Below are positions 10,743 to 38,471 of a DNA stretch of 57,884 bases, piece by piece. The notes beneath the pieces are model-generated. The model worked only from the letters and a program-made list of their open reading frames with translations, was not told where the DNA came from and ran no database searches. The position numbers were made by a program, and so were the translations under genes. Source of the DNA: Deltaproteobacteria bacterium (GTDB taxonomy: Bacteria > Desulfobacterota > Binatia > HRBIN30); the NCBI GenBank assembly GCA_016200585.1, contig JACQEN010000198.1, positions 1 to 57,884 of the forward strand, in the 5' to 3' direction. Position 1 is the stretch's first letter. Every line of letters begins with the position of its first letter.

Positions 10743-11267
10743 TTACGGCGCGGGGCAAGCCGTTATGCAGGCGCCATCGGTGTCTTGGCACGTTACGCCG
10801 GAGGCCTGCGCGGTAGCAAGACAATCCTGCAAGCAAGAGAGCTGACTCGGCGTGCCAGGGTCATTGTTGTCAAAACAATCGTTCGCGCATGAACCGGCTG
10901 CAGTTAGGATTCCGTTCGCGCAAAACGTGAATTGCTTGGCGCAATCGACCAAGCAGGTCTTTTGCGGATCCTGAAGGGGCGGCAGGTCGAAACAGCCTGG
11001 TCTGCAGTTCAAATGGTAATTGACCATGCACCCGTGTCTCGTAGAGAAAAAATCCGTCGTGCATGCGTGATTACAAGTGGGAAACAAAGCGGGGGCGCCA
11101 GCACGACACTGCTCCGTGCAAACACGGCGCGTAATCGCAAGCGGCGCAACACACATCCTCAATTGCGCTCCGCATTCGTGCGTGCACGCCTGATCTGTAG
11201 CCCAAGCGTTGCCTGCGGCGAACAACAGAACGACGACAACAAGACCGTCGTATCGGCTAGATCGCAT
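10743..11267 (-). CDS. Secreted cysteine-rich protein with two tandem 10-Cys modules
   Basis: SD GGAGGG before ATG 11267, signal peptide ending AWA, 20 Cys mostly as CxxxC pairs. Confidence 0.75.
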   Translation of the reverse strand: MRSSRYDGLVVVVLLFAAGNAWATDQACTHECGAQLRMCVAPLAITRRVCTEQCRAGAPALFPTCNHACTTDFFSTRHGCMVNYHLNCRPGCFDLPPLQDPQKTCLVDCAKQFTFCANGILTAAGSCANDCFDNNDPGTPSQLSCLQDCLATAQASGVTCQDTDGACITACPAP

Positions 11268-11510
11268 AGCGTGCCCCTCCCGGATAGCGTTATGGCCCCT
11301 GTACGAACACCGCGTCAAGCCGGTGATCGAGTTGTCGATCGGCTCTTGGTATCGCATTCGTAGGGATTTGCCGGCGTAGCCGTTTTGCGTGTCGAGAAAG
11401 TAGTCAAACCCATCGCGGCGTGAGCAAGGCTTAGGCACGACTCGCCGCTGCCGTCTGCGGGACCGCAAGTCTCGAACGACGACGCCTCTTCCAGCGCACG
11501 CTCACGGGTG

Positions 11511-11527
11511 CTGGCATCGCCATTGCT
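11511..11527 (+). promoter_or_regulatory. Sigma54 (-24/-12) promoter of nasTS
   Basis: CTGGCATCGCCATTGCT is GG-N10-GC and close to the TGGCAC-N5-TTGC consensus; lies ~85 nt upstream of nasT. Confidence 0.75.
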
Positions 11528-11611
11528 GAGAACGCTCTCGCTGAATTGATTGAAACGCCGAGAGTGGCTCGCTGGGTCAATTCGGTGCGCGATAGAGATT
11601 TGAGGGTTTCT

Positions 11612-12196
11612 TTGCAGAGCCGATTGCGGGTGATGATTGTCGACGAGAAGGCAGAGCGGGCGGCGCTGATCGAATCGGGTTTGATCGAAGCCGGTTGCGA
11701 GGTGGTGGGCTGCTTGATCGGGCAGTCCGACCTGGAGAGCAAAGTCAGCTCCCTCCAACCCGATGTCATCGTCATCGATATGGAGTGTCCCGACCGCGAT
11801 ACGCTGGAGGACATGTTCCGCACCACGCTGCATCGGCAACACCCGACGGTGATGTTCGTCGACCGCAGCGACAGTGAGTCGATCCGGGCCGCGGTGCAAG
11901 CCGGCGTCAGCGCGTATGTCGTCGGCGGCTTGAGCCCGGAACGTGTGCGGCCGATTCTCGAGGTGGCGATTGCGCGCTTTCAGGAGTTTCAAACCCTGCG
12001 GCGCGAGCTGGACGATGCCAAGTCGAACCTCGAAGAGCGCAAGGTCGTCGAGCGTGCCAAGGGCATTCTGATGAAGCGCCGCGGCATGGCCGAAGACGAG
12101 GCCTTCCGTCTCCTGCGCAAGATGGCCATGGACCGCAAGATACGTTTGGCAGCGCTGGCGCGTGAGATCGTCGCCGCGGCGGAGGTGTTGCTTTGA
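11612..12196 (+). CDS. nasT: ANTAR-domain RNA-binding regulator (receiver-like + ANTAR)
   Basis: PDVIVIDMECPDRDTLE, AVQAGVSAYVV, LEERKVVERAKGILM...EDEAFRLLRKMAM. Probable TTG start at 11612 after GAGGG. Confidence 0.92.
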   Translation: MQSRLRVMIVDEKAERAALIESGLIEAGCEVVGCLIGQSDLESKVSSLQPDVIVIDMECPDRDTLEDMFRTTLHRQHPTVMFVDRSDSESIRAAVQAGVSAYVVGGLSPERVRPILEVAIARFQEFQTLRRELDDAKSNLEERKVVERAKGILMKRRGMAEDEAFRLLRKMAMDRKIRLAALAREIVAAAEVLL

Positions 12197-13455
12197 AGCC
12201 GTTGCGCGTTGGGTTTATTCCGTTGTCCGATTGCGCGGTCCTCGCGGTGGCGCAGGAAAAGGGTTTCTTTCGCCGCCATGAAATCGAGGTGACGTTGTCG
12301 CGCGAGGTGTCGTGGGCCAACGTCCGCGACAAGGTCGCAACCGGCGACCTCGATGCGGCGCAGATGCTCGCCGGTATGCCGTTGGCGGCGACCGCGGGAA
12401 TCGACCCGTTCGCCGAACCGATGGTGACGGGGCTGAGCCTCGGACTCAACGGCAATGCGATCACGGTGTCGACGTCGCTGTGGGCGCGTATGCAGGAGGC
12501 CGATGCCGACAGTGTGATGCGACGACCGGCCTCGGCAGTGGCGTTGCGCCGCGTTATCGACGACGACCGCCGGCAGCGCCGGCCGATGTTGCGCTTCGCC
12601 ATGGTCTATCCGTTTTCGACGCACAACTACGAGCTGCGCTATTGGCTGGCGGCTGCCGGTATCGATCCCGACAACGACGTCCGCCTGTCGGTCGTTCCCC
12701 CGATCCGTATGGTGGAGATGCTCGGACGCGTTGCCGTCGACGGTTTCTGCGTCGGTGAGCCGTGGAGCTCGTTGGCGGTGTCGCGTGGCCTCGGCCGCAT
12801 CGTGGCGACCAAGTATGACATCTGGAACAACAGCCCCGAGAAGGTTCTCGCCGTCAAGCGTCGCTTCGCCGAACAGAACCCGGAGGTGCACCGCGCCTTG
12901 CTGCGCGCCGTTCTCGATGCGGCTCGCTGGGCCGATCTCCCTGAGAACCGTGGGGAGGTTGCGAGAATTCTCGCCGCCGAGGCTTACATCGGAGTGCCGG
13001 AGCCCGTGCTTGCAGCGACGCTGGACGGTCGCGTCGTCCTGGCTCGCGACGAGGCCCCCGTTTCGATACCCGACTTCCATGTGTTTCACCGCTATGGCGC
13101 AAACGTTCCGTGGATCTCGCACGCGCTGTGGCTGCTCGTCCAAATGCTGCGCTGGGGGCAGCTGACGAGCGCGCCTAACTTGATGAAGTTGGCGCGCTCC
13201 GTCTATCGCGTCGATCTCTATCGCGCTGCCGCCCTCGAGCTCGGCGTCTCGGCGCCCGACGCCGATTTGAAGAGTGAGGGTGTGCATGGAGGCCCATGGT
13301 CGCTGCCGGGGACGGCCGGGCCCGTGGAAATGGGTCCGGATCTCTTCTTCGACGGCCGCGAGTTTCATCCGACCGAGCTTGCCTCATACCTCATGAGCTT
13401 GCAGGGCAATCTACCGCAACGCAGCTTCGAGGCCCTCTTGGAGGCCAATTCGTGA
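12193..13455 (+). CDS. nasS: Cytoplasmic nitrate/nitrite sensor (NrtA/CmpA fold, no signal peptide)
   Basis: GFIPLSDCA, SWANVRDK, NGNAIT, FSTHNYELRYWL, GFCVGEPW, PEKVL. Overlaps nasT and has no export signal. Confidence 0.88.
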   Translation: MKPLRVGFIPLSDCAVLAVAQEKGFFRRHEIEVTLSREVSWANVRDKVATGDLDAAQMLAGMPLAATAGIDPFAEPMVTGLSLGLNGNAITVSTSLWARMQEADADSVMRRPASAVALRRVIDDDRRQRRPMLRFAMVYPFSTHNYELRYWLAAAGIDPDNDVRLSVVPPIRMVEMLGRVAVDGFCVGEPWSSLAVSRGLGRIVATKYDIWNNSPEKVLAVKRRFAEQNPEVHRALLRAVLDAARWADLPENRGEVARILAAEAYIGVPEPVLAATLDGRVVLARDEAPVSIPDFHVFHRYGANVPWISHALWLLVQMLRWGQLTSAPNLMKLARSVYRVDLYRAAALELGVSAPDADLKSEGVHGGPWSLPGTAGPVEMGPDLFFDGREFHPTELASYLMSLQGNLPQRSFEALLEANS

Positions 13456-13557: not shown

Positions 13558-13572
13558 CGGCACGCCCCTTGC
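13558..13572 (+). promoter_or_regulatory. Sigma54 (-24/-12) promoter of the nitrate assimilation operon
   Basis: CGGCACGCCCCTTGC is GG-N10-GC, near consensus. Confidence 0.8.
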
Positions 13573-13630
13573 GTTAAGGTCTCGTCAAGCGTGCGGTGGA
13601 GAAGAGACAGCACGCGCAAAACGAAGTGGG

Positions 13631-13701
13631 GCGAACCATCGACGGTTCGTCCGCGGACAACGACGTCCCTTCGTGCGGAAAGCTCCGCGCAAGGAGAGAC
13701 G
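13631..13701 (+). promoter_or_regulatory. ANTAR-target leader RNA: dual hexaloop hairpins plus a competing hairpin
   Basis: P1 GCGAACC-ATCGAC-GGTTCGT (13631-13650) and P2 GGAC-AACGAC-GTCC (13655-13668), both loops with A1/G4. The 3' side of P2 can pair into CGTC-CCTT-C-GTGCGGA-aagc-TCCGCGC-AAGG-aga-GACG. Confidence 0.85.
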
Positions 13702-13715
13702 ATGAGGAGTCCGCG

Positions 13716-16700
13716 ATGAATCGAGCTTCGAAAGTAGCTGTACCCACTTCGACGCCGCAGTTGGCTGCGGAAGAATCCGCTGTCGATGTCACGGGCAAGC
13801 GCATCATCGTGGTCGGCCACGGCATGGTCGGCCACCGCTTCTGCGAGGAGATGGCGGCAGGCGGCTCGCGGCAGCCGTTTCGTATCACTTGCTTCGGAGA
13901 GGAACGTCGAACCGCCTACGACCGCGTCCCTCTGAGCGACTTCTTTGCCGGGAAGAGCGCCGCCGACCTGCAACTCGCCGACCCCGACTGGTACGCGGCG
14001 CAGGCGATCGAGCTCTGTGTCGGTGAGCGCGTCGTCGGCATCGATCGCGGCAATCGCACCGTTGTCACCGACCGCGATCGACAGGTTTCTTACGACATCT
14101 TGGTGCTGGCCACCGGCTCCGCGCCCTTCGTTCCACCGATTCCCGGCACCGACCTTCCCGGCGTGTTCGTCTATCGCACGATCGAAGACCTTGAAGCCAT
14201 TCAGGCGTGGGGCCGTCGTGGCGGACGTGCCGCGGTCATCGGCGGCGGCTTGCTCGGGCTCGAAGCGGCCAAGGCGGCGCTCGATCTGGGGCTCGAAACG
14301 CACGTCATCGAAGCCGCACCGCGATTGATGCCGCGGCAAGTCGACACCGGTGGTGGTCAGGTACTGCGGGCCGCCATCGAGCGCCTTGGCGTGCGGGTTC
14401 GTGTCGGGGCGCAAACCGAGGCGATCTTCGGTGAGGGCAGCGTAGCCGGATTGCGTTTCCGCGACGGCGAGGAGCTGGCGGTCGACATAGTGATCATTTC
14501 TGCCGGCATCCGGCCGCGTGACGAGTTGGCGCGGTCGGCCGGCCTCGTGATCGGCGAACGCGGCGGGATCGTCGTCGACCCGACGTTGGCGACGAGCGAT
14601 CCCCACATCTTCTGCATCGGGGAAAGCGCGCTGGTCAACGGCATGATCTACGGCCTGGTGGCGCCGGGCTACGACATGGCGCGCGCGCTGGCGGCGCGTT
14701 TGCGCGGCGGCGACAGCGTCTTCTCCGGTGCGGATCTGTCCGCCAAGCTGAAGCTTCTCGGGGTTGAGGTGGCGAGCTTCGGCGACGCGTTTGCCGATGA
14801 GACGGCAGGCAGCGAGGCGCGCCGCGTGGTGTTCGAGGATCGCGCCGCCGGCGTCTACCAGAAGCTGGTTACCAGCACCGATGGGCGGCGCTTGCTCGGC
14901 GGCGTGCTGGTTGGCGACGCCAGCGCCTACACCCGCTTGCTGGCGCTTCTACGGACCGGCGCCGAGCTGCCCGAGCGCTTGCACGAAGTCCTGTTCGGTG
15001 CCGCTGCCGCCGACGCCAACGGTTCGCTCGCGGCCTTCGATGACGAAGCACAGATCTGTTCCTGTAACCAGGTATCGAAGGGAGCGATCTGCAGCGCCAT
15101 CCGCGATCAACAGCTGACGACGGTCGGAGGCATCAAGGCCTGTACGCGCGCCGGCACCGGTTGCGGCGGCTGCGTGCCGTTCGTTGCGAAAATCCTGGAA
15201 TGCGAGCTTGCGGCCAGCGGCCGTCAGGTCAACCGCAACCTCTGCGAGCACTTCGCTTACACGCGCCAGGAGTTGTTTCAGATCGTCAAGCTCGGACGCA
15301 TCGTCAGTTTTGATGAGTTGCTCGCGGGCCATGGGCAGGGCGGCGGCTGCGAGGTGTGTCGTCCGGCCGTCGCATCGATCTTGGCCAGCAGCTGGAACGA
15401 TTTCGTCCTCAAGCACGCGACGATTCAAGACACCAACGACCGCTTCCTCGCCAACATTCAGCGTGGCGGGACCTACTCGGTGATTCCACGCATTCCGGGC
15501 GGCGAGATCACCCCGGAAAAGCTCATGGTGATCGCCGACGTCGCACGACGCTACGACTTGTACTGCAAGATTACCGGCGGCCAGCGCATCGATCTGCTCG
15601 GTGCGCGCGTCGACCAGTTGCCGGCGATCTGGGAGGAGCTGGTCAACGCCGGGTTCGAAAGCGGCCACGCCTACGGCAAGGCGATGCGTACGGTGAAGAG
15701 CTGCGTCGGATCAACCTGGTGCCGCTTCGGCGTGCAGGATTCGACGGCACTGGCCATCCGCATCGAAGAGCGCTACCGCGGCATCCGCGCGCCGCACAAG
15801 CTCAAGTCGGCGGTCTCCGGTTGCATCCGGGAATGCGCCGAAGCGCAGAGCAAAGACTTTGGCGTCATTGCGACGGAGAAGGGCTGGAACCTGTACCTGT
15901 GCGGCAACGGCGGGTCGCAGCCGCGTCACGCCGACCTCGTGGCCAGCGACGTCGACGAAGAAACGCTGATCCGTCTGATCGATCGCTTCCTGATGTACTA
16001 CATCCACACTGCCAACCCGCTCGAGCGCACGGCGCGTTGGTTGGAACGACTCGACGGCGGCATCGAGTATCTCAAGAGCGTGATCGTCGACGACCGTCTC
16101 GGCATTTGCGAACGACTCGAATACGACATGCAATTGCTCGTCGACGCGTACGAGTGCGAGTGGGCGGCGGTGGTGCGCGACCCGCAACGCCAGGCCGCCT
16201 TCCGCCACTTTGCCAACAGCCCTGAGCCGGATCCGCAACTCGCCTTCGTGCGCGAGCGCGGACAACGACGCCCCGAGGACTGGCCGCAATCGCCGGCCAC
16301 CACACCGCCGCTGGTTGCAGTCGAGGGTCAAACGTGGGTGCGCGTCGCCAACGCCGCCGACGTACCGCGCGATGGTGGCGTGACGATCCGTTGTGGTGGG
16401 GCGCAGATCGCCGTCTACCACTTTGCCAGTCGCAACCCAGGAGTCTGGTACGCCTGCCAGGCGATGTGCCCGCATCGCGGCGATATGGTGTTGGGAAGAG
16501 GGCTTCTGGGCACACAAGGCGACGAACCGAAGGTCGCTTGCCCAATGCACAAGAAGACCTTCTCGCTTCTCAGCGGTGTCGGCCTCTCCGATCCGCAGTT
16601 CTCGGTACAGACATTTCCGGTGGAGGTGCGCGACGGTGAGGTGTACGTCGCTCTGCCGCCGTTCGATCAATTGATGACGGCAAACAACGACACCTGCCGC

Positions 16701-16748
16701 GGCGGGCTGTGCGGCGTCGAAGGTCTGGCCACGGAGGCGAACGCGTGA
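13716..16748 (+). CDS. nirB: Assimilatory NAD(P)H nitrite reductase, NirB fused to a C-terminal NirD Rieske domain
   Basis: VVGHGMVG and IGGGLLGLE (FAD/NAD); CSCN..CGGC and CEH..CEVC (BFD-like); KSCVGSTWC and SGCIRECA (siroheme-4Fe4S); C-terminal CPHRG...CPMH Rieske. SD GAGGAG before ATG 13716. Confidence 0.95.
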   Translation: MNRASKVAVPTSTPQLAAEESAVDVTGKRIIVVGHGMVGHRFCEEMAAGGSRQPFRITCFGEERRTAYDRVPLSDFFAGKSAADLQLADPDWYAAQAIELCVGERVVGIDRGNRTVVTDRDRQVSYDILVLATGSAPFVPPIPGTDLPGVFVYRTIEDLEAIQAWGRRGGRAAVIGGGLLGLEAAKAALDLGLETHVIEAAPRLMPRQVDTGGGQVLRAAIERLGVRVRVGAQTEAIFGEGSVAGLRFRDGEELAVDIVIISAGIRPRDELARSAGLVIGERGGIVVDPTLATSDPHIFCIGESALVNGMIYGLVAPGYDMARALAARLRGGDSVFSGADLSAKLKLLGVEVASFGDAFADETAGSEARRVVFEDRAAGVYQKLVTSTDGRRLLGGVLVGDASAYTRLLALLRTGAELPERLHEVLFGAAAADANGSLAAFDDEAQICSCNQVSKGAICSAIRDQQLTTVGGIKACTRAGTGCGGCVPFVAKILECELAASGRQVNRNLCEHFAYTRQELFQIVKLGRIVSFDELLAGHGQGGGCEVCRPAVASILASSWNDFVLKHATIQDTNDRFLANIQRGGTYSVIPRIPGGEITPEKLMVIADVARRYDLYCKITGGQRIDLLGARVDQLPAIWEELVNAGFESGHAYGKAMRTVKSCVGSTWCRFGVQDSTALAIRIEERYRGIRAPHKLKSAVSGCIRECAEAQSKDFGVIATEKGWNLYLCGNGGSQPRHADLVASDVDEETLIRLIDRFLMYYIHTANPLERTARWLERLDGGIEYLKSVIVDDRLGICERLEYDMQLLVDAYECEWAAVVRDPQRQAAFRHFANSPEPDPQLAFVRERGQRRPEDWPQSPATTPPLVAVEGQTWVRVANAADVPRDGGVTIRCGGAQIAVYHFASRNPGVWYACQAMCPHRGDMVLGRGLLGTQGDEPKVACPMHKKTFSLLSGVGLSDPQFSVQTFPVEVRDGEVYVALPPFDQLMTANNDTCRGGLCGVEGLATEANA

Positions 16749-17875
16749 GCCGTTTGAGCATGGATCGGCTGCCAGGCGAGAACGTCGCAACCGTGGGAGC
16801 CTTCCCCGCGTCTCTCACCGGTGCGGAGCGAGCGACGGTAGCTCCCCGTGGCGCAGTGCTGAACCTCTTGCCATGGCGTGATGCGACGATCGCCACACTC
16901 TTGTTGATCGCCGCGATCGCTGTGGGCTCCGGATTCTTCGCCAGCTTCGATCCGGCCTTGCTCGGCTACTGCGCCGCCACTCTCGTTGCCAGCGTCGCGG
17001 TTGTCTGGCGCCTCAGCGCCTTTTGGCGTCGGCCGGCGTCGGCGTTCTACGCTCGTGCCTTGTTGGCGGCGCTGCTGCAGCCCAGCGACTTGCTTCGGAC
17101 GCTGTCGGCGGCCGGTTGCGATCTGGGTGCGCAGAATTTCATTCGCCGGCGTTCCGCGATCCGCTGGGCGGCGCATCTCTTGTTGTCTCTCGGCACGCTG
17201 ACGAGCTTCGCGATCACCGTTCCACTGGTCTTCGGCTGGATGCACTTCGTTGCCGACGGCGAGCGCAGCTTTCGGATGATCGTGTTCAACCTGCCGGCCG
17301 TCCGCTTCGACGTCGGTGGGGCGTTCGCCTGGTGCATCTTCCATGGGCTCATCCTGGCGGCGGTCGCGGTGACATTGGGAGCGCTCTATTTTCTAGTCGC
17401 ACGTTTGCGCCGGCGGACACTGCCGGAGGTAACGGCGAGCTTTGCGATCGCTCCGCTCCTGCTGCTGCTGTTCATTGCTCTCAGCGGCCTGGCGTTACCG
17501 GCAACGCGCGGCTGGCCATTCGGGTTCCGCGTCGCGGCGCTGGCCCACGAGGCGTCGGTCATCGTGCTTCTGGTGGCGTTGCCGTTCTCGAAGCTGAACC
17601 ACCTGTTGGTGCGCCCGCTGCAGCTCGGTGTACGCGCCGTACGCCGAGACGACGCGGCGTGGCGCGCTTGTGCGTCGTGCGCTTCACGGCTTGCTCCGAC
17701 GGCACAGCAGCACGCCGTCGCCGATCTGCTGGAAAGACGCGGCCTGCCGGTGGCGTCGCACTGGCGGCTGTGCCCACAGTGCCGGCGCAAACGTGTCGCT
17801 GCGACCCAGGCGAGTCTGGTCGGGGCGTCGTTCCAGCCGCGCCTGGGTGCCGGCTGCGATCGCGAGGTGGCCTGA
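16745..17875 (+). CDS. Polytopic membrane protein, NarI/cytochrome b-like, with a C-terminal CxxC...CxxC motif
   Basis: Multiple TM helices with His residues (AAHLL, IFHGL, LAHEA, PFSKLNH, resembling the NarI PFSRLVH motif); CASC and CPQC near the C-terminus; GTGA overlap with the nirB stop. Confidence 0.65.
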
Positions 17876-17876
17876 A

Positions 17877-20105
17877 ATGGCAACTCTCTCTGCGACCGTC
17901 GACGAGCTCATCGAAGCCTACGGTCCACACCTGAGCTTCGAGCCGCCGGGTGGTTTTGCGAACCGTGGCGCCGTCGATCGGCGCGTCGAGACCCACTGTT
18001 GCTTCTGCGGCCAGCAGTGCGGCGTCAAGCTGCTGGTGAAGGACGAGAAAGTCGTCGGCGTCGAGCCGTGGGAAGAGTTTCCGTTCAATCGCGGCAAGCT
18101 CTGCCCCAAAGGCGTGAAGCGCTACCTGCAAAACAATCATCGCGACCGCTTGCTCCACCCGTTGGTGCGGACCGGTCGGGGATTTGCACGGATTCCGTGG
18201 GACGAAGCGCTCGACCTGGTTGCCGAGCGCTTCGAACGGCTGCAGCGGGCGCACGGCCGCGACAGTGTCGCGGTGTTGTCGGGGGCGTCGCTCACCAACG
18301 AAAAGGCATACCTCATGGGCAAGTTCGCGCGGCTTGCGGTCGGTACGCGACACATCGACTACAACGGTCGCTTGTGCATGGTCGCCGCCGGCGCCGCGAA
18401 TCTCAAAGCCTTTGGAATCGATCGCGCTGCCAACCCGTGGGCCGACATTGCCGCGACGGATTTGATCCTGGTCGTCGGCGCCAACGTCTCGGAGTGCAGC
18501 CCGATCACCACCGACTACATCTGGCGGGCCCGCGATCGTGGAGCACGGCTGATCGTCATCGACCCGCGGTTGACGCCGATTGCGCGCACATCGGATCTCT
18601 ACTTGCCGGTGCGGCCCGGCCGCGACTCGGCGCTGATGAACGCAATCCTGCACGAAGTTGTTCGACTGGGCGGAGTCGACCACGAGTTCATTGCGCAGCA
18701 CACCTCAGGCTTCGAAGAGCTACAGCGCACGATCGCACACTACGCGCCGGAGAGCGTGGCGCAGGAAGTCGGCATTCCGGCGCGACGCATCGTCGAGGCG
18801 GCGCAGATGTGGGTACAAGCGCCGCGCACGATGCTGTTGCACGCGCGCGGCATCGAGCATCACACCAAAGGTGTCGAGAACGTGCTGTCGTGCATCAACC
18901 TGGTGCTGGCCACCGGCAAGATCGGCAAGCCGGGTTGCGGCTACGCGACGATCACCGGACAGGGCAACGGTCAGGGCGCGCGCGAGCAGGGGCAGCGCTG
19001 CAATCAGTTGCCGGGTGCCCGCGATGTCGAGAATCCGCAGCATCGCGCTGTGGTCGCAGAACGTTGGGGTGTTCCCGAGAGCCGCATCCCGGCGAAGGGC
19101 GCGAGTGCGCCGGAGATCATCGAGATGAGCCACCGCGGTGAAATCCGCGGGCTGCTGTCGATGTGCTTCAATCCACTGGTCTCGCTGCCGGATGCAAGCT
19201 TCACGCGCGCCGCATTGGAGCGCCTCGACTTCTACGTTGCGATCGACTTCTTCCTGTCCGAGACGGCTCGGCACGCCGATCTCGTCCTGCCCGGCTCGCT
19301 TCAGGAAGAGGACGAAGGCACGGTAACCAATGTCGAAGGGCGCGTCCTGCGCCTTCGCAAGGCCGTTGAGCCGCCGGGCGAGGCGCGACCCGATTGGCAG
19401 ATCATCTGCGACCTGGCGCGACGATTCGGAGCCGGCGAGCACTTTGCGTTCTCCGGTCCGGCAGCTGTCTTCGACGAGCTGCGGCGGCTCTCCGCCGGTG
19501 CTGTCGCCGACTATTCCGGCATCACCTACGACAAGATCGACCGCCAAATGGGTGTGTTCTGGCCGTGTCCGGACGACGACCATCCCGGGACGCCGCGTTT
19601 GTTTGAAGGCGGTCGTTTTGCGCACGCCGACGGCCGGGCGCGTTTTCACGCCGTCGAGTATCGTCCGCCGGCGGAAGAGGTCGACGCCGAGTATCCGATC
19701 ATTCTGACGACCGGACGCGTCGTCTCACAGTTTCTGTCGGGGACGCAAACGCGCCGCATCGGTCCGCTCGTCGCCCATCAACCGGAGCCGTTCGTCGAAA
19801 TGCACCCGCGCCTGGCGGCGAAGCTCGACGTTGCCGACGGCGACCGTGTGCGTGTGGTCAGCCGGCGCGGCGTGCTCGTGTTGACCGCGCAAGTGGTGGC
19901 GACGATTCGACCGGACACCGTTTTCATTCCCTATCACTGGCCCGGCGAGCGCTCGGCGAATCGGCTGACGCTACGTGCCTACGATCCGATCGCCAAGATT
20001 CCGGAGTTCAAGGTGTCGGCGGTGCGCATCGAGAAGATTGCAGCACATGCCGGCCGGACGGGTGCGCTGCCGCGGTTCGCGGCGGCAGAGGCGAGCGAAC
20101 CATGA
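17877..20105 (+). CDS. nasA: Mo-bisPGD nitrate reductase catalytic subunit (Nas/NarB type)
   Basis: [10 protein letters not shown]...LCPKG 4Fe-4S motif; NGRLCM Mo-ligand motif (Cys-Met, nitrate reductase type); TGQGNGQG; LTTGR; PEFK. No Tat signal. Confidence 0.85.
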
Positions 20106-20713
20106 TCCACGACCTGTTCATCGACGCCAATCGCTGCATCGGCTGTCGCGCTTGTGTGGAGGCGTGCAGCGAGTGCCCGAGTCACGGCGGTCAGTCGATG
20201 ATCCACCTCGACTTCCTCGACCGAACGCAAACGGTGCAGACGGCGCCGACCGTCTGCATGCATTGCGTCGATCCGTCGTGTGCTGCCGTGTGTCCGGCCG
20301 ATGCCATCAAGATCGACGACAACGGAGTGGTGATGACGGCGATGCCCGAGCGTTGCATCGGCTGCGGCAATTGTTCCCTGGCGTGCCCGTTCGGGGTGCC
20401 GCAACTGCACGTCGAAATCGATCTGATGATGAAGTGCGACCTTTGTTACGATCGCACCTCCGCCGGTTTGAAGCCGATGTGCGCCACCGTGTGTCCTTCC
20501 GGGGCCCTGTACTACGGCACGCGCGACGAGATCGAGGATCTGCGGCGGACGCGCGCAACGAATACGTTTGCGTTCGGCGATGCGGCGGTGTCGACACGCA
20601 ACCACCTCATGGCGCCGGCGGGCACCGCCTCGATCCACATCCACGACGGGGCAGGGCATTCGGGCCGCGGCTTGTCGCGTGCCGAGCAACAGTTGGGGGA
20701 GGCTCTGTGTTGA
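20102..20713 (+). CDS. 4Fe-4S dicluster electron-transfer subunit (DmsB/NrfC-like)
   Basis: [36 protein letters not shown]...P.CATVCP. Confidence 0.92.
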
Positions 20714-21153
20714 AGAAGCCGGAGGTCTTTCCGGTCGCCTTGGCTTCCGAACGGGTGCTCGATCGCCGTCGGTTTCTTTGTGCCGCCGGTGGCGCGGCAG
20801 TCCTGGCGCTGGCCGGCGAGTGGGGCGCCAAGCGCGCCGAAGAAGGTTCGCAAGCCGAAGCGCTGGCGCTGCAACTCGACGAAACGCCGTTGGCCGTCGG
20901 TGAGGCGCGCACGGTTACGGCCACCGGTGGTGCAGAGGCGCTGGTCGTTCAAGTCGACGCGTCGACGCTGGTTGGGTTCGATCGGCGCTGTCCGCATCTC
21001 GGCTGTCCGGTTCTTTGGGTGAAAGAGCACACTCGTTTCGAGTGCCCGTGTCATCACGCGGCATTCGACGCACGCAGTGGAGAGGTGTTGTTTGGTCCGC
21101 CGCGACACGGGCTCAGGCCGGCGCGGCTCGTAACGAAAGCCCGCAAGGTGTGA
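20710..21153 (+). CDS. Rieske 2Fe-2S protein with a twin-arginine-like N-terminus
   Basis: DRRRFL followed by a hydrophobic stretch; CPHLGC and CPCH boxes; GPP motif. This is the C-terminal part of ORF 19975-21153; start at TTG 20710 or GTG 20707 after GGAGG. Confidence 0.88.
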
Positions 21154-21197: not shown

Positions 21198-22478
21198 ATG
21201 TCACGACGAAAGCAACGCTCACAGCCAGCAACCGGAGGGGTTTCGCGGCGACGGTTTCTCAAGGTGGCCGGGGGAACGATGGGCGCACTCATGGCGGGAT
21301 TGCCGCGCGGCTGGGTCGGCCGCGTCTATGCGGCGGACGGTCCGGAAACGTCGCAGATCCGTTTCGGGATCATCGCGCTGACCGACTGCTCGTCGATCGT
21401 CATGGCGCACGAGCTCGGGCTGTTCAAGAAGTACGGCATCGAGTCGACGATCTCGAAGGAAGCTTCGTGGGCGGTGATACGCGATCGCCTGTCGCTGGGC
21501 GAGAATCAGGCGACGCACATGCTCTACGGCATGCCGTACGGGTCGACGATGGGGCTCGGAGGGTCGCCCAAAAGGCCGATGGTCATTCCGTTCTGTCTCA
21601 ATCGCAACGGCCAGGCGATCACCCTGAACAAGAAGCTGCGCGACGCCGGTGTGCGCAAGCCGCAAGACATCAAACCTCTGGCCGAAGAAGCGAAGAAAAA
21701 TGGATCGCCGCTGACTTTCGCCATGACCTTCCCGACCGGCACGCACGCCATGTGGATCCGCTATTGGCTGGCGTCCGGCGGCATCAACCCGGACAAGGAT
21801 GTCACGCTCATCACCATCCCGCCTCCGCAAATGGTGTCGAACATGAAGGTCGACAAGATGCAGGGCTTCTGTGTCGGCGAGCCGTGGAACGCGCGCGCCA
21901 TTGCCGACGACATCGGCTTCACCGCGATCACTTCGCAGCAGATCTGGAAGGATCACCCGGAGAAGGTTCTGGCCTTCACCGAGGAGTTTGCCGAAAAGAA
22001 TCCCAAGACGGTCAAAGCGATCTTGCGAGCCATGATCGAGTCGAGCCAGTTCATCGACAAGCTCGACAACCGGCCGCAGGTTGCGGAGGTCGTGTCGCGG
22101 CCGCAGTACATCAACTGCGAGCCCGGCGTGATCCTCGGCCGCTTGCTCGGAAAGTACGACTACGGCGACGGGCGCAGCGAGCAAGATCCGTCGTACATGA
22201 CGTTCTACGACCGCCAGACCAATTTCCCGTGGAAGTCGCATGGGCTGTGGTGGCTGTCGCAGTTCCGCCGCTGGGGCATGGTTGGCGGCGACCTCGATTA
22301 CAAGGGCGTCGTCAACAAAGTGCACCGGCCCGATCTCTTTCGCGCGGTGGCGAAGGAGGTCGGCGTCGACGCTCCGGCCGAGGATTTGAAGAGCGAAGCC
22401 TTCTTCGACGGCGGGACCTTCGATCCCAACGAGCCCGAAAAATACGCGACCGGTTTTCCGGTGCACAACCTGGTTTGA
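21198..22478 (+). CDS. nrtA: Nitrate ABC transporter substrate-binding protein (Tat-exported)
   Basis: SRRRFLK Tat motif, GIIALTDC, NGQAIT, TFPTGTH, GFCVGEPW, HPEK; SD GAGGAGG. Confidence 0.9.
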   Translation: MSRRKQRSQPATGGVSRRRFLKVAGGTMGALMAGLPRGWVGRVYAADGPETSQIRFGIIALTDCSSIVMAHELGLFKKYGIESTISKEASWAVIRDRLSLGENQATHMLYGMPYGSTMGLGGSPKRPMVIPFCLNRNGQAITLNKKLRDAGVRKPQDIKPLAEEAKKNGSPLTFAMTFPTGTHAMWIRYWLASGGINPDKDVTLITIPPPQMVSNMKVDKMQGFCVGEPWNARAIADDIGFTAITSQQIWKDHPEKVLAFTEEFAEKNPKTVKAILRAMIESSQFIDKLDNRPQVAEVVSRPQYINCEPGVILGRLLGKYDYGDGRSEQDPSYMTFYDRQTNFPWKSHGLWWLSQFRRWGMVGGDLDYKGVVNKVHRPDLFRAVAKEVGVDAPAEDLKSEAFFDGGTFDPNEPEKYATGFPVHNLV

Positions 22479-22491: not shown

Positions 22492-23265
22492 ATGCGCAAA
22501 CGATTTGAGATGGGAGCCGTCGTCTTGCCGTTGCTGGGCATCGGCCTGGTGCTGTTGGTGTGGACGATCGTCAGCCAAACGGTCGCTCCGGATTTGCCGT
22601 CGCCGCTGCGGACCTGGCACGAATCGCGGCCGTACATCGTCCGTCCGTTCTTCAAGGACGGCGAGATGAACCAGGGGATCGGCCGCTTTGCGATTCTCAG
22701 CTTGGTGCGCGTCGCCAAGGGCTTCCTGCTGGCCATCGTGCTCGGGACGCCGCTCGGATTCTTGCTCGGACTGTCGCGGGCGTTCTACCGCGCCTTCGAT
22801 CCGATCATTCAAATTCTGCGCCCGATCTCGCCGTTGGCGTGGTTGCCGCTGGGGTTGATCATCTTCCAGCGTTCCGAGCCGGCCGCGGTATTCACGATTG
22901 CGCTGTGCGCCATGTGGCCGACGGTGATCAACACGGCGGTGGGCGTGCGCAACATCAACCCCGACTACTGGAACGTCGGCCGCGTCTTGCGGCTGTCGCC
23001 GTGGAAGATGCTGCGCAAGATCATCATCCCGGCCAGCATGCCGTACGTGTTCACCGGCTATCGGCTGTCGCTGGGTATCGCTTGGTTGGTGATTGTCGCT
23101 TCCGAAATGCTCACCGGCGCACCGGGCGTCGGCGGGTTTCTATGGCAGGAGTACAACAGCCTGGTCTACTCGCACATCCTGCTGTCGATCGTCACCATCG
23201 GTCTCATCGGCTTTGCCCTGGATCGCCTGATGGGACTGGCGGAGCGCCGCTTTCAAACCGTTTGA
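22492..23265 (+). CDS. nrtB: Nitrate ABC transporter permease
   Basis: LRPISPLAWLP, WPTVINTAVG, IAWLVIVASEML. Confidence 0.92.
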   Translation: MRKRFEMGAVVLPLLGIGLVLLVWTIVSQTVAPDLPSPLRTWHESRPYIVRPFFKDGEMNQGIGRFAILSLVRVAKGFLLAIVLGTPLGFLLGLSRAFYRAFDPIIQILRPISPLAWLPLGLIIFQRSEPAAVFTIALCAMWPTVINTAVGVRNINPDYWNVGRVLRLSPWKMLRKIIIPASMPYVFTGYRLSLGIAWLVIVASEMLTGAPGVGGFLWQEYNSLVYSHILLSIVTIGLIGFALDRLMGLAERRFQTV

Positions 23266-23280: not shown

Positions 23281-24105
23281 ATGGCGTTCTTGGAATTGCG
23301 CGGTGTCGGCAAGAGCTACTGGACCCCACGCGGCTGGTACAGTGTGCTCGACAATCTGAATTTGGACGTCGAAGCGGGCGAGTTCGTTTGCATCGTCGGC
23401 TACTCGGGATCGGGAAAGACGACGCTGGTGTCGCTGATTGCCGGCCTGATGCAGCCGGATTGCGGCGAAATCCGGCTCGGCGGTGAGCTGGTGCGCGGAC
23501 CGGGTCCGGATCGCGGCATCGTGTTTCAGAACTACTCGCTGCTTGCCTGGATGAGCGTGTTCGAGAATGTCTACCTCGCGGTCGATGCGGTCTCGCCGCA
23601 GCTCTCGGCGGCACAGAAGCGCGAGCGTACCGACCACTTGATTGCAACGGTCAACCTCAGTGCGGCGGCGCACAAGCGTCCGCACGAGCTCTCCGGCGGC
23701 ATGCGCCAGCGTGTCGCCGTGGCGCGCGGCCTGGCGATGAATCCGCAGCTGCTGCTTCTCGACGAGCCGTTCAGCGCCCTCGACGCATTGACGCGCGCAA
23801 CCTTGCAGACGGAGCTGGCGCGCCTTTGGATGGAAGAGCGCAAGACCGTGGTGATGATCACCAACGACGTCGAGGAAGCCATCTTGCTCGCCGACCGCAT
23901 CTATCCACTGACACCGGGTCCGGCGGCGCATCTCGGCCCGGAAATCGTCGTCGATCTGCCGCATCCGCGTTCCAGCCGCGCGCTCAATCTGCAGCCCGGT
24001 TACCATCACGCTCGTCGCGACATCGTCGAGTTCCTCGCCAGTCAACGCCGCGCAACCAATCGCAGTGCGGCGCCTGAAACGCCGGCGCTGGCGGTGGCGT
24101 CATGA
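23281..24105 (+). CDS. Nitrate ABC transporter ATP-binding protein 1 (NrtC/D family)
   Basis: GYSGSGKT, VFQNYSL, LSGGMRQR, LLLDEPF; the H-loop reads ITND. Confidence 0.92.
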   Translation: MAFLELRGVGKSYWTPRGWYSVLDNLNLDVEAGEFVCIVGYSGSGKTTLVSLIAGLMQPDCGEIRLGGELVRGPGPDRGIVFQNYSLLAWMSVFENVYLAVDAVSPQLSAAQKRERTDHLIATVNLSAAAHKRPHELSGGMRQRVAVARGLAMNPQLLLLDEPFSALDALTRATLQTELARLWMEERKTVVMITNDVEEAILLADRIYPLTPGPAAHLGPEIVVDLPHPRSSRALNLQPGYHHARRDIVEFLASQRRATNRSAAPETPALAVAS

Positions 24106-25028
24106 ACGAGCGCTTCGTCGAGCTGACGCAGCTGGGAAAGAGCTACGACACCCCATCGGGCTCGGCGGTGATCGTACGCGACTTCAACTTGCGCATCCGA
24201 GAAGGCGAATTCGTCTGTCTCATCGGACACTCCGGTTGCGGCAAGTCGACCGTATTGTCGATCCTCATGGGGCTGAACAGTCCAACCGAAGGTGGGGCCA
24301 TTGTTGCAGGCCGTGAGGTCGACGGCCCCGGTCTGGAGCGTGGGATCGTCTTCCAATCCGCCGCGTTGCTGCCGTGGTTGACGGTGCGCGACAATGTCCT
24401 GCTGGCGGTCGAGCAGGTGGCGAGATTTGAAAGCCGCGCGCAGCAAATCGAGCAGGCGGAAGAAGCGCTGCGTCTCGTCGGTTTGGACGAACAAGGCGAG
24501 CACTATCCGAATGAGCTTTCCTCGGGGATGCGCCAGCGTGTCGGGATTGCCCGGGCGTTGGCCGTTCATCCCAAGGTGCTGTTGCTCGACGAGCCGTTCA
24601 GCTTGCTCGATGCGCTGACGCGCATGGAGCTGCAGGACGAGCTCATGCGCCTCTGGGAGCGTGATCAGAAGACCGTGGTCATGGTGACGCACGACGTCGA
24701 CGAAGCTTTGCTGCTGGCGGATCGCGTCGTGATGATGACCAGCGGACCGGCGGCGACGGTCGGTGACATCCTGACCGTGCCGCTGGACCGCCCGCGGCGC
24801 CGCGAGGCCCTCGTCGACGATCCGGTGTACTACGCGGCGCGCGAGCAGCTGTTGGCTTTCCTGGATGGCAATGCCGCAACCAGCGTGTCGGATGTGCCGC
24901 CGTTGTCATCCGTGTCGAAAGCGCTGACGACACGTGACCGGCAACTTGCGGCGCGGCGCGGCGAGCGCGACAGCGCCGACGGTACCGAACAAATCGCAAT
25001 TCGCGGGACTGCCTCGGTCGCTGTCTGA
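24102..25028 (+). CDS. Nitrate ABC transporter ATP-binding protein 2 (NrtC/D family)
   Basis: GHSGCGKS, LSSGMRQR, LLLDEPF, VTHDVDEA. Confidence 0.92.
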   Translation: MNERFVELTQLGKSYDTPSGSAVIVRDFNLRIREGEFVCLIGHSGCGKSTVLSILMGLNSPTEGGAIVAGREVDGPGLERGIVFQSAALLPWLTVRDNVLLAVEQVARFESRAQQIEQAEEALRLVGLDEQGEHYPNELSSGMRQRVGIARALAVHPKVLLLDEPFSLLDALTRMELQDELMRLWERDQKTVVMVTHDVDEALLLADRVVMMTSGPAATVGDILTVPLDRPRRREALVDDPVYYAAREQLLAFLDGNAATSVSDVPPLSSVSKALTTRDRQLAARRGERDSADGTEQIAIRGTASVAV

Positions 25029-25073: not shown

Positions 25074-26558
25074 ATGAAGGCGACAGTGTGTCGTACACTG
25101 GTGGTGTACCTATGCCTTGCCGGCCTGCCGAGAATGGGACACGGCGAGATTACGGTCGATTCGATTTCGCCGAAATTGTCGGTGGCGGCCAGTCTGCGGA
25201 CTCGCTGGGAGTTGTGGAACTGGTTCGAACCGACGGGTACGCAGAACAACGACTACGACTTCATTGGAGCGGTCGGGCGTGCTTCGGTGAAGTGGAAGGA
25301 CGATCCGTTCGAGTTGTTTGTCGAAGGGCAGAGCTCGGCGCTCATCGACTTGCCGACGACAGCCAGCGCGCCGGCGCCGCAGGGCAACCTCGGGTTGGGC
25401 GGCGTCTACTTTCAGCACAATCGCCGGCGCAACGACGCCAGCGTGTTTCTCAAGCAGGGCTACCTGACGTTGAAACAGCTTGGGCTTCCGGGTCTGTCGA
25501 TCAAAGGCGGACGATTCGAGTTCTCCGAGGGCAACGAAGTGCTGAGCGGCGATGCCAGTGTCGATTGGTTGAAGAACACGCGTCTCGCCCAGCGTCTGAT
25601 CGGGTCGTTTGGATGGTCGGACGTCGGCCGTGCTTTCGACGGCGGAGTGGTGGCGTTCAATCGCGCTCCGATCAACGTCACGCTCATGGCCTCGCATCCG
25701 ACCGAAGGCGGTTTCGATCTCAACGGCATGCACAGCATCGACGACATCGACCTCGGCTACGCCGCCCTGAACTTTACCAAGCTGCGGGCCTCGTCGAGCA
25801 GCGATGCGCGGCTATTCTACATCTACTACGACGATCGGCGGCACCAGACGAAATCGGACAACCGGCCGCTGGCGGCACGCAACAACGCGACGGAGCGCAG
25901 CGCCGACATCAACCTGCACACCGGTGGCGGCCATTTGATTCACGTGGCGAGCACGCCGTTCGGGTCGGTCGACGGTATGCTGTGGGGCGTTCTGCAAGGC
26001 GGGGATTGGGGACGGCAGAGCGACTTTGGCTGGTCATGGGACGTCGAAGCCGGCTGGCAACCGGCGCTGCCGTGGAAACCATGGATCCGTGCCGGCTACA
26101 CACGCAGCTCCGGCGACGACAATCCGAACGACGACAAGCACAAGACTTTCTTTCAGATCCTACCGACGGCGCGCATCTACTCCTTCTCGACCTTCTACAA
26201 TCTGATGAACACGCAGGATGCGTTCGGGTCGCTCTTGCTGCGTCCGATCACCGGCCTGGTGTCGCGTACCGAGTTGCACGTCCTGCGCCTCACCGAATCG
26301 CACGACCTCTGGTATCAAGGCTCGGGTGCAACGTTGAGCGACCGCAATCGCGCCGAAGGTTTCGGGTTTCCCGGCCGTCCGGCGAACGGACAACGCGAGC
26401 TCTTCACGTTGGTCGAGACATCGATCGGCTACGACTGGAACCGCTTTCTCAATACCAACCTCTACTATGGTCACGCCTTTGGGGGCGCCGTCGTCAACAA
26501 GATCTATTCCGGCAGTGACGCGGATTTCGGCTATCTCGAGCTCACGCTGAAGATCTGA
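25074..26558 (+). CDS. Outer-membrane beta-barrel, alginate export (AlgE-like) family; probable nitrate porin
   Basis: Signal peptide, R.R.E near the N-terminus, GRAFDG, SGDDNP.D...TF, alternating beta-strand pattern; last gene of the nitrate operon. Confidence 0.78.
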   Translation: MKATVCRTLVVYLCLAGLPRMGHGEITVDSISPKLSVAASLRTRWELWNWFEPTGTQNNDYDFIGAVGRASVKWKDDPFELFVEGQSSALIDLPTTASAPAPQGNLGLGGVYFQHNRRRNDASVFLKQGYLTLKQLGLPGLSIKGGRFEFSEGNEVLSGDASVDWLKNTRLAQRLIGSFGWSDVGRAFDGGVVAFNRAPINVTLMASHPTEGGFDLNGMHSIDDIDLGYAALNFTKLRASSSSDARLFYIYYDDRRHQTKSDNRPLAARNNATERSADINLHTGGGHLIHVASTPFGSVDGMLWGVLQGGDWGRQSDFGWSWDVEAGWQPALPWKPWIRAGYTRSSGDDNPNDDKHKTFFQILPTARIYSFSTFYNLMNTQDAFGSLLLRPITGLVSRTELHVLRLTESHDLWYQGSGATLSDRNRAEGFGFPGRPANGQRELFTLVETSIGYDWNRFLNTNLYYGHAFGGAVVNKIYSGSDADFGYLELTLKI

Positions 26559-34832: not shown

Positions 34833-34835
34833 TGG

Positions 34836-35276
34836 ATGGAGAGCAAATTCCTTTTGCCCGACCCGGAGGATGACGACGCGGCGCCGTTCTGGCAGGGCAC
34901 GGCGCGCGGCGAGTTGCTCGTCCAAGCCTGCGCGGCCTGCGGCAAGCGCCGCATGCCGCCGCGCCCGATGTGTCCGAGCTGCGGCGCTACAACGTCGCGC
35001 TGGGAGAAGCTCAGCGGCCGCGGGACGATCTGGTCGTTCGTCGTGCCGCATCCGCCGCTGCTGCCGGCATACCAGGAGCTCGCACCGTACAATGTCATCA
35101 CCGTCGCCACTGACGATGATGCGAACCTGCGCTTTATCGGCAACCTGGTGGCGACGCCGCACGGGGCGATCAATGAAGTCGATCCGGCGACGATCCGCAT
35201 CGGCGAATCCGTGCGCGTCGTCTTTCAACAAGTAGAGGACGTTCATCTGCCGCGCTGGATGCGTGTGTACAGCTAG
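34836..35276 (+). CDS. DUF35 Zn-ribbon/OB-fold protein (ChsH2-like partner)
   Basis: PFW.G...GEL.VQ.C..C...PPRPMCP.C, GRGTIWSF; adjacent to the thiolase-fold gene. Confidence 0.92.
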   Translation: MESKFLLPDPEDDDAAPFWQGTARGELLVQACAACGKRRMPPRPMCPSCGATTSRWEKLSGRGTIWSFVVPHPPLLPAYQELAPYNVITVATDDDANLRFIGNLVATPHGAINEVDPATIRIGESVRVVFQQVEDVHLPRWMRVYS

Positions 35277-35322
35277 ATCAATACCTGAATCGCCTGAGTG
35301 TACAGGTCTCTTCGACAAGAAA

Positions 35323-35357
35323 CCCCCTCCTTAGTAAGGAGGGGGCAAGGGGGTGGT
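35323..35357. repeat. Left palindromic terminal repeat of the DUF559 cassette
   Basis: CCCCCTCCTTA-G-TAAGGAGGGGG followed by CAAGGGGGTGGT. Confidence 0.9.
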
Positions 35358-35359
35358 TG

Positions 35360-35759: not shown

Positions 35760-35849
35760 TTTTGATGGCGAAAACACGGCGTCCCGCAACTTGTTAAGGT
35801 ACGGTTGATCTGCCACACCGGCCGGTATCTTCGAAACGAGAAGGAGAAC

Positions 35850-36950: not shown

Positions 36951-36973
36951 TCTCGGAACGCGGCCCCACCCTT

Positions 36974-37047: not shown

Positions 37048-37101
37048 ACGTCGGATCGTTTCGGATTTGCAGTAGAGGGACCAGTGGTTTATTTCGGCCG
37101 C

Positions 37102-38427: not shown

Positions 38428-38471
38428 GCTGTACCAATCGATCTTAGGATCGTCGCGGGAGGACGTCCGAG

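Follow-up and report, generated by a model that had tools for sequence, protein, structure and literature searches.

The assimilatory nitrate reductases (Nas) that have been characterised, such as Paracoccus NasC with NasG and NasB, Klebsiella NasA/NasC and cyanobacterial NarB, have no membrane subunit, and their electron donor is either NADH, acting through a flavoprotein, or else ferredoxin or flavodoxin. In the respiratory NarGHI enzyme of Escherichia coli (1Q16), a cytoplasm-facing subunit with a molybdenum bis-pyranopterin guanine dinucleotide (Mo-bisPGD) cofactor is joined to a multi-cluster iron-sulfur (Fe-S) subunit and a di-heme b membrane subunit. Rieske proteins also occur beside nitrate reductases, since haloarchaeal nar clusters, whose NarGH faces outward, encode a Rieske protein, NarB, together with a cytochrome b, NarC. 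A 2023 survey of the dimethyl sulfoxide (DMSO) reductase superfamily describes, in the part of it available to us, NasC/NasA as exclusively assimilatory and cytoplasmic (PMC10100899). The way in which NADH electrons reach the nitrate reductase in Paracoccus NasB/NasG/NasC is summarised in the accessible part of a 2012 paper by Heylen and Keltjens, which also reports that genes for an iron-sulfur protein and a second Rieske protein are linked to nasC in Bacillus bataviensis; this trio is proposed there as an alternative assimilatory system, although the same part of the paper only remarks on it and mentions no membrane subunit (PMC3475470). In this study we analysed a stretch of 57,884 nucleotides, referred to below as the window, from a Deltaproteobacteria bacterium of the class Binatia (assembly GCA_016200585.1, contig JACQEN010000198.1). 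In this window a NasC-like gene, unlike those of the soluble Nas systems, is flanked by a gene for a NarI-like membrane protein on its 5' side and by genes for a four-cluster Fe-S protein and a Rieske protein with a twin-arginine translocation (Tat) motif on its 3' side.

On balance, we consider it probable that these four genes encode one NarGHI-like nitrate reductase, bound to the membrane, facing the cytoplasm and built around a Nas/Nap-type catalytic subunit, as homology and gene linkage suggest. A preliminary description of the window had proposed an assimilatory nitrate reductase with respiratory-style partners that was not recognised as characterised. Topical full-text searches on assimilatory and novel nitrate reductases, Rieske proteins and quinol, DUF6755, NarK fusions, Acidobacteriota and Binatia likewise returned no characterisation of the module. 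However, the linkage of nasC, Fe-S and Rieske genes had already been remarked on in 2012 for the B. bataviensis trio, which, going by its description, resembles the module in this linkage (PMC3475470, in the part available).

Results

Conservation of the four-gene module

Inspection of the reading frames (positions 16745-21153, + strand) bears out the tight coupling of four genes claimed in the preliminary description. The membrane protein gene (16745..17875) begins with a GTG that overlaps the stop of the preceding nirBD gene as GTGA, with an alternative ATG at 16760, and the ATG of the NasC-like catalytic gene (17877..20105) lies one base past the stop of the membrane protein gene. The Fe-S gene (20102..20713) forms an ATGA overlap with the catalytic gene, and the Rieske gene (20707..21153) overlaps the stop of the Fe-S gene. 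To follow this arrangement elsewhere we used 106 loci, all of them found via the membrane protein, so that the partner counts given below are conditional on its presence and take in only contigs long enough to include the position in question. Window-type loci comprise 25 genome contigs and genome G431, with membrane proteins 51-66% identical to that of the window, whereas 80 distant loci come from metagenomes (about 30-38% identity), which were scanned with a close alignment of 11 sequences.

The NasC gene follows the membrane protein gene in all 24 window-type and all 56 distant loci that could be counted. The Fe-S gene follows in 19/19 and 34/35, respectively (53/54 in total, the miss being locus L047), and the Rieske gene in 18/18 and 30/30 (48/48 in total). 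The order membrane protein, NasC, Fe-S and Rieske is held even in loci of only about 30% identity. Because this arrangement recurs in more than 100 independent loci, it is far beyond chance, and the four genes are a conserved unit that travels together across very divergent lineages. The neighbourhood conservation that the preliminary description had named as a check is found in nearly all loci with sufficient flanking sequence.

Outside the window's clade the module has a fifth conserved gene. A gene for DUF6755, a small two-helix membrane protein, stands after the Rieske gene in 27/28 distant loci (for example in L027, L044, L060, L078, L090 and L105) but in 0/18 window-type loci. The window's genome, at 85% completeness, lacks this gene, and no mention of DUF6755 was found in the literature searched. 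In two genomes of the window's class, each a single contig, nirB-(nirD), the module and DUF6755 occur together. The surroundings of the two groups also differ: nirB precedes the module in 15/16 window-type loci (the miss being L001) and in 4/26 distant loci with at least 3.5 kb of upstream sequence, whereas a NarK-type transporter of the major facilitator superfamily (MFS) is found in 0/21 window-type loci but is fused to the membrane protein in 26/48 distant loci and separate in 2/48. The distant loci are flanked by genes for Crp/Fnr regulators, ScdA-hemerythrin (RIC), NnrS, radical-SAM proteins and SLAC1/TehA-type channels, and in one case by pyruvate formate-lyase and acetate kinase, which is an anaerobic, nitric oxide-related setting. 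Since the neighbours of these distant copies are Crp/Fnr, NnrS and RIC genes, respiration is suggested for them, and the same module probably serves nitrate respiration in other lineages.

Genes for SLAC1/TehA-type anion channels lie next to the module in 5/80 distant loci (for example L104:12190-13746, L072:12465-13862 and L046:6803-7933), and such channels may take the place of NarK in the transport of nitrate or nitrite. In one of these loci, the region directly upstream of the module (L046:541-7933) encodes a Paired_CXXCH multiheme cytochrome, an MtrB/PioB-type porin, a class I cytochrome c and NapC/NirT besides the SLAC1/TehA channel, a layout that would be in keeping with nitrate reduction supplied by electrons from outside the cell or from Fe(II).

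The membrane protein family is large and is named inconsistently. A word-index search returned 184 relatives, all more than 50% identical, and a profile search of 1.84 billion representatives returned 864 clusters at E <= 1e-3 and 98 at E <= 1e-30. With a distant member as the query, 5837 proteins were matched at E <= 1e-10 among 8000 candidates. Atlas clusters of relatives come from Actinomycetota, Acidobacteriota, Verrucomicrobiota and Chloroflexota. Within the class Binatia the membrane protein profile matched in 51 of 201 sampled genomes and in 33 of 89 genera, while in a phylum-wide sample it matched the window's genome only (1/301), that sample holding just 9 other genomes of the class. 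A scan of genome contigs with the membrane protein as a single sequence found no relative, whereas the alignment-based scan did find relatives. The databases call members of the family 'MFS transporter', 'NNP family nitrate/nitrite transporter-like' or 'nitrate reductase gamma subunit', and Pfam CitB (PF27541) is precomputed on a few of them. The first label is explained by relatives in other lineages in which a NarK-family MFS domain (TIGR00886, 227-241 bits against a cut-off of 311.7) lies N-terminal to the NarI-like domain in one polypeptide of about 750 residues; the transporter name of stand-alone members has probably been carried over from these fused proteins. Long frames in relatives that would join NirBD to the membrane protein, or the membrane protein to NasC, were rejected as fusions, being GC-rich overlapping frames with the genes in different frames.

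The catalytic subunit

The catalytic subunit carries the motif GRLCMVAAG, and its N-terminus has no combination of a twin-arginine and a hydrophobic signal. Its Pfam matches are limited to Molybdop_Fe4S4 (51.8 bits), Molybdopterin and Molydop_binding, with no Fer2_BFD. The RLCM motif and the lack of both a Tat signal and a C-terminal BFD-like domain are thus as the preliminary description had them. NasC (NF047855) is the best NCBIfam model with 818.5 bits, which does not reach the equivalog cut-off of 1100, and a distant orthologue scores 829.9 on the same model. The Fdh-alpha model comes second with 622 bits against a cut-off of 666, while the narG model gives 62 bits only. The top sequence matches in the PDB are formate dehydrogenases, followed by Desulfovibrio NapA. 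However, our alignment to five chains of the formate dehydrogenase type shows that the residue after the molybdenum-ligand Cys is Met, where the formate dehydrogenases have His (in one case Gln), and that the subunit reads TGQ where they read RGQ, with Thr at the catalytic Arg of all five. Nap and Nas enzymes share both the 'CM' and the 'TGQ'. Because the His and Arg positions are occupied by Met and Thr, the subunit is to be regarded as a nitrate reductase of Nas/Nap type, and an identity as a formate dehydrogenase is rejected on these catalytic residues. The alignments and models thus support a Nas/Nap-type Mo-bisPGD enzyme with an N-terminal motif for a 4Fe-4S cluster (FS0). This subunit differs from NarG of the NarGHI enzyme in being of Nas/Nap type with a Cys ligand, whereas it belongs to the same catalytic family as the soluble Nas enzymes.

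The membrane subunit

Hydropathy and counts of Lys and Arg give six hydrophobic segments and positively charged loops at residues 83-144, 220-232 and 282-376. From these we predict six transmembrane helices with both termini in the cytoplasm, so that the C-terminal tail with its four cysteines (Cys4 tail) would also be cytoplasmic. The N-in topology agrees with the natural fusions downstream of a NarK-family MFS domain, as the C-terminus of MFS proteins is cytoplasmic. H144, H200, H268 and H286, together with C309, C312, C343 and C346 of the CxxC..CxxC tail, are invariant in 26 relatives, in keeping with the four candidate histidines and the tail reported in the preliminary description. In the wider set of loci, H144, H268 and H286 are conserved in all 105 save for one alignment gap, and H200 is kept in 24/24 window-type loci. 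Given the predicted topology, H144/H286 would lie near the cytoplasmic face and H200/H268 near the periplasmic face, and both pairs are candidate heme ligands. Among the 80 distant loci the tail retains C343 and C346 in all 80, C312 in 78 and C309 in 65. Separately, the tail (window 17642-17875, CxxC...CPxCRR) weakly resembles the C-terminal 50 residues of E. coli HycF (7z0s chain F, E 0.0046), which hints at a shared small metal-binding docking module.

Several lines of comparison point to the NarI superfamily. A profile built from 60 family members has E. coli NarI as its best PDB match (E 0.001); in this alignment H268 falls on H187 and PFSKLNH286 (PFSKLxH286 in the family) on PFSRLIH205, and the two histidines of the last helix are 18 residues apart, as in the PF(S/T)RLxH pair of NarI. 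Four of 13 distant members scanned with Pfam Nitrate_red_gam (PF02665) score 20.3-22.4 bits against a cut-off of 22.9. The NCBIfam matches of the window's protein are weak (E 3e-4 to 3e-3) and are to TmcC, TcuB and QmoC, which we take to be NarI/HdrE-like heme-b anchors; all of these scores are far under the family cut-offs, that of TmcC being 20.6 against 240. An AlphaFold2 model of the protein (predicted local distance difference test, pLDDT, 83.8) has di-heme b proteins as its best structural matches in VIA-align, namely CybB (Z 10.8), EtfD (Z 10.8 over 181 residues), NarI (Z 10.1 over 182 residues) and HyaC (8.5), all at a level, below about 13, where Z can be generic for helical bundles. 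Together these comparisons support a remote relative of NarI that is cytochrome-b-like and may bind heme. An identity as an MFS transporter is ruled out, because no MFS domain is matched and the label stems from fused relatives, and in this respect the NarI-like assignment of the preliminary description holds. The protein nevertheless differs from NarI by an extra N-terminal helix, by the Cys4 tail and by a single His in the equivalent of helix II. Its best family-level matches, the electron conduits TmcC, QmoC and TcuB/CitB, and mycobacterial EtfD, which is among the top folds, work with other partners, and the family described here has its own Cys4 tail instead of their CCG or ferredoxin domains.

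The iron-sulfur and Rieske subunits

The Fe-S protein of 203 residues has 16 Cys in four CxxCxxCxxxC-type motifs and no signal peptide. It matches Fer4_11 with 73.6 bits (cut-off 26.2), and its nearest models are HybA, DmsB and FdnH, of which none reaches its equivalog cut-off (best HybA, 100.9 against 263). These features are typical of an electron-transfer subunit with four [4Fe-4S] clusters of the DmsB/HybA/FdnH type, in contrast to the NarH subunit of NarGHI.

The Rieske protein carries the motifs DRRRFL, CPHLGC and CPCH, and scores 40.3 on the Rieske Pfam model (cut-off 20.3). The RR motif and both cluster-binding boxes had been noted before. R20, R21, the four ligands and two extra Cys are invariant in 26/26 sequences of 18-60% identity, and the extra Cys presumably form the disulfide of bc-type and AioB Rieske proteins. 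A Tat-like LDRRRFL is present in the window-type orthologues, while distant orthologues have a conserved segment before the RR and a longer hydrophobic anchor. In the structure model (pLDDT 87.4) a 29-residue N-terminal helix is followed by the Rieske domain, whose nearest structures are AioB (E 6e-6) and then the Rieske subunits of b6f and bc1 complexes, with dioxygenase ferredoxins lower. The equivalog cut-offs of PetC (40.6 against 250), QcrA (38.3 against 275) and AioB (arsenite_ox_S, 33.8 against 95.65) are not reached. We thus predict a Tat-type, N-terminally anchored, bc/b6f/AioB-like Rieske protein that faces the periplasm. In a predicted complex of this protein with residues 40-376 of the membrane protein, the score was 0.27 against a mark of 0.32, which, in a run without controls, speaks neither for nor against an association.

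Operon context and role in this genome

Upstream of the module, on the same strand, lie nasT (11546..12196; ANTAR 2.6e-21, Response_reg 1.4e-07), which encodes a receiver-ANTAR antiterminator, nasS (12193..13455; NMT1_2 4.4e-80), which encodes an NrtA-like nitrate/nitrite sensor and overlaps the nasT stop, and a nirBD fusion (13717..16748, with a probable ATG at 13717 in a frame open from 13596). The nirBD product, a large subunit of NADH nitrite reductase joined to a Rieske-like NirD, scores 1102 bits on NirB (cut-off 883) and 93.8 bits on NirD (cut-off 74.65, residues 913-1019), and it contains Pyr_redox_2, Fer2_BFD and NIR_SIR domains. Downstream follow nrtA (21198-22478), nrtB (22492-23265), nrtC (23281-24105) and nrtD (24102-25028) for an ABC importer of nitrate/nitrite, also on the + strand, and, as the last gene of the cluster, a gene for an outer-membrane porin-like protein (25074..26558, + strand; Alginate_exp 7.1e-17). 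Orthologues of nrtABCD are found downstream of the module in relatives too, the porin-like gene adjoins the cluster in several of them, and the complete layout from nasT to nrtABCD recurs in genome G431. There is no narJ in the cluster. An ANTAR regulator, an NrtA-like sensor, NirBD, a transporter and a nitrate reductase are thus found together, as expected of a NasS/NasT operon, and this operon logic is common to the soluble Nas systems.

The preliminary description had placed the module in a sigma54/NasST-controlled assimilation operon, and nasS and nasT are indeed present. A sigma-54-like -24/-12 element, TGGCATCGCCATTGCT (11512..11527, + strand), lies 19 bases before the nasT frame and has one mismatch to TGGCAC-N5-TTGCW, being one of only 2 sites in the window with at most one mismatch; a weaker element, CGGCACGCCCCTTGCG, lies before nirBD (13558-13573). 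At up to two mismatches there are 24 such sites in the window against 25.5 expected, and, as this is not above chance, only the position of the site is suggestive. Two hairpins in the leader before the nirBD ATG (13629..13690, + strand) have loops readable as the hexaloops AUCGAC and AAAGCU, which is suggestive of, and compatible with, an ANTAR target under the A1/G4 hexaloop rule for such targets. An Rfam scan of the window, with the leader hairpins included, matched no family.

The genome of 5.6 Mb yielded no match over the cut-offs for NarG or NapA at its 85% completeness. The next-best relative of the catalytic subunit in the genome is 31% identical, and several paralogues of about 1000 residues belong to the type II DMSO-reductase family. 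At least seven frames of about 700-1150 residues on contigs C150, C326 (three), C297 (two) and C345 weakly match narG, the best with 118 bits and none over the cut-off, and these look like an expansion of type II DMSO-reductase-family enzymes. Because the module lies inside the nasT-nasS-nirBD...nrtABCD cluster and no NarG or NapA was found, its role here is taken to be assimilatory, and by context it would be under NasS/NasT control and serve assimilation. The nasS and nasT genes point in this direction, as do, more tentatively, the sigma-54-like site and the leader hairpins.

Elsewhere in the window, a cysteine-rich frame of 241 residues on the - strand (10743-11468), between an Oxidored_FMN gene and nasT, has a hydrophobic N-terminus and matches no Pfam family. 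Further downstream (33675-40540) is a lipid/steroid-like catabolic cluster with no link to the nitrate genes, which includes a thiolase-like gene with a ChsH2-type OB-fold protein, a Zn alcohol dehydrogenase, a cytochrome P450 and a wax-ester synthase/DGAT.

Discussion

The module shares with NarGHI a predicted cytoplasm-facing Mo-bisPGD subunit, a predicted multi-cluster Fe-S subunit and a predicted di-heme b membrane subunit with its spaced histidine pair, as well as the association with NarK-type transporters, but it adds an exported Rieske protein and, in other lineages, DUF6755. If the four proteins form one enzyme, the simplest scheme with a task for each part would be a redox loop of the Nar kind. 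Electrons would enter the membrane subunit on the periplasmic side, and quinol oxidised near the distal heme is the likeliest source, since NarI, the closest solved relative, oxidises quinol. The electrons would then cross the membrane via two b hemes, held by H200/H268 and next by H144/H286, and exit close to the Cys4 tail on the cytoplasmic side, passing to the four [4Fe-4S] clusters, from which FS0 and the Mo-bisPGD would be reached. Nitrate imported by NrtABCD would be reduced there, and the adjacent NADH-dependent NirBD would carry nitrite on to ammonium. The periplasmic Rieske centre may be part of the quinol site, as in bc complexes, or may form a second port through which periplasmic carriers deliver or take up electrons.

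Several observations weigh against this proposal. Heme binding, the quinol site and the association of the subunits all come from homology and gene linkage, and the membrane protein itself has no Pfam match at E <= 0.01 and its model no Foldseek match in the PDB at E <= 0.001 (E > 0.1). Position H200, which the preliminary description had counted among four candidate heme ligands, is conserved only in the window's clade, while the other three are universal: of the 80 distant loci, 46 have His at position 200, 33 have Asn and one has Phe. The helix-II His pair of NarI, which we take to be H56 and H66, has only one counterpart, H144, with H200 on the next helix. Because H200 varies and the helix-II pair is half-matched, a canonical distal heme is not assured throughout the family. 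Likewise, C309 is substituted in 15/80 distant loci, and a tail in which this Cys can be replaced may be a structural Zn site instead of a redox centre. A Rieske protein in the periplasm has no obvious role in a Nar-like wire from quinol to the cytoplasm, and the operon encodes no donor or acceptor for it. Since the Rieske protein is predicted to be periplasmic and the reductase cytoplasmic, the respiratory-style partnership of the preliminary description, whose partners are indeed conserved, gives an incomplete picture. Finally, the adjacent NirB-NirD could feed NADH electrons to the catalytic subunit.

The last point leads to a quite improbable alternative, a soluble NADH-dependent Nas in which NirB-NirD serves the catalytic subunit in the manner of Paracoccus NasB/NasG/NasC and the other three proteins are accessory or separate. 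The preliminary description had stressed that no separate NADH diaphorase gene is present, which holds in the strict sense, but little weight attaches to it, as NirB-NirD, with its FAD/NADH and BFD domains, is encoded immediately upstream, translationally coupled and in nearly all window-type loci. However, the module persists without nirB in most of the distant loci, the four-cluster and NarI-like proteins have no part in a Paracoccus-style model, and the strict co-inheritance of these partners with the catalytic gene argues for one complex. We regard it as rather unlikely, though less so, that the donor is periplasmic, with the Rieske protein as the entry port for electrons from cytochrome c, cupredoxin or extracellular donors and the NarI-like protein as a mere transmembrane wire, as in Tmc, Hmc and DsrMKJOP. 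The best family matches of the membrane protein, TmcC and QmoC, are in line with such a wire, the Rieske protein bears all the marks of an exported, high-potential type, and the fourth His, which would lie towards the quinol side, varies; in L046, moreover, the MtrB/PioB-like porin, multiheme cytochrome, cytochrome c and NapC/NirT genes stand directly upstream. Yet neither the window's operon nor most of the loci has a cytochrome c or cupredoxin gene, the quinol oxidation by NarI points the other way, and by textbook midpoint potentials a c-type donor would have only a small driving force for reducing nitrate against the membrane potential.

An enzyme that faces the periplasm, with the signal-less molybdenum and Fe-S subunits hitch-hiking on the Tat signal of the Rieske protein as AioA does on AioB, would be Nap-like and docked on cytochrome b. 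AioA likewise lacks a signal of its own, the Rieske protein is the sole subunit with a Tat motif, and its closest structures are AioB, with matches to the arsenite_ox_S NCBIfam. In arsenite oxidase AioAB and iodate reductase IdrAB, as here, a signal-less molybdoenzyme is encoded with a small Tat-Rieske subunit. We consider this arrangement very improbable, since the NarK-type fusions and adjacent genes, the NrtABCD importer and the cytoplasmic NirBD point to nitrate reduction in the cytoplasm, the conserved Cys4 tail and the proximal His pair are predicted to face the same side, and the long anchor and pre-RR segment of the distant Rieske proteins resemble bc-type membrane-anchored Rieske proteins. 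Aio also differs from the module in being periplasmic, in having a 3Fe-4S cluster and in lacking a four-cluster subunit, a membrane anchor and a protein ligand to Mo. Compared with Rieske/cytochrome b complexes and the haloarchaeal nar clusters, the module likewise combines an anchored twin-arginine Rieske protein with a membrane cytochrome b and a nitrate reductase, whereas its cytochrome b is of NarI type and not bc type, and no cytochrome c1 or f is encoded. That the molybdoenzyme is no nitrate reductase at all, but for instance a formate dehydrogenase or a reductase of another oxyanion, is hardly credible: the Fdh-alpha score close to its cut-off, the formate dehydrogenases at the top of the PDB matches and the missed NasC cut-off could be cited for it, but the catalytic His and Arg are replaced by Met and Thr, NasC is the best-matching model, and the context is that of a nitrate regulon and transporter here and of NarK fusions elsewhere.

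The NarGHI-like complex proposed here would be assimilatory by context in this genome, as the preliminary description had it, but the module as such is not specifically assimilatory, because most of the distant copies stand in Fnr/NnrS/RIC contexts without nirB. Its parts are all of known kinds and their combination is new, and there is a real chance that it forms a class of its own. More tentatively, and with less than even odds, it could stand next to Nar, Nap and Nas as a further, fourth main class of prokaryotic nitrate reductases. This would be a widespread five-part machine including DUF6755, with a Nas-type molybdenum subunit, a four-cluster protein, a Tat-Rieske protein, a NarI-type cytochrome b either free or fused to NarK and a hybrid quinol site of Rieske protein and cytochrome b, from which one branch would lead to nitrate in the cytoplasm and a periplasmic Rieske branch to other carriers, and which would serve assimilation in some lineages, such as this genome, and energy-conserving respiration in others.

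In summary, the module breaks the mapping of nitrate reductases onto membrane-bound respiratory Nar, periplasmic Nap and soluble assimilatory Nas, for here a Nas-type catalytic subunit appears to be wired to the membrane. The pairing of a Rieske centre with a cytochrome of NarI type would likewise be new to bioenergetics. If the reading as a fourth class is true, many environmental 'nasA' counts and 'MFS transporter' annotations would have been misread. If the module is linked to quinol, 'nasA' signals in metagenomes could include respiratory enzymes, and nitrate assimilation in these organisms would conserve energy instead of spending NAD(P)H.

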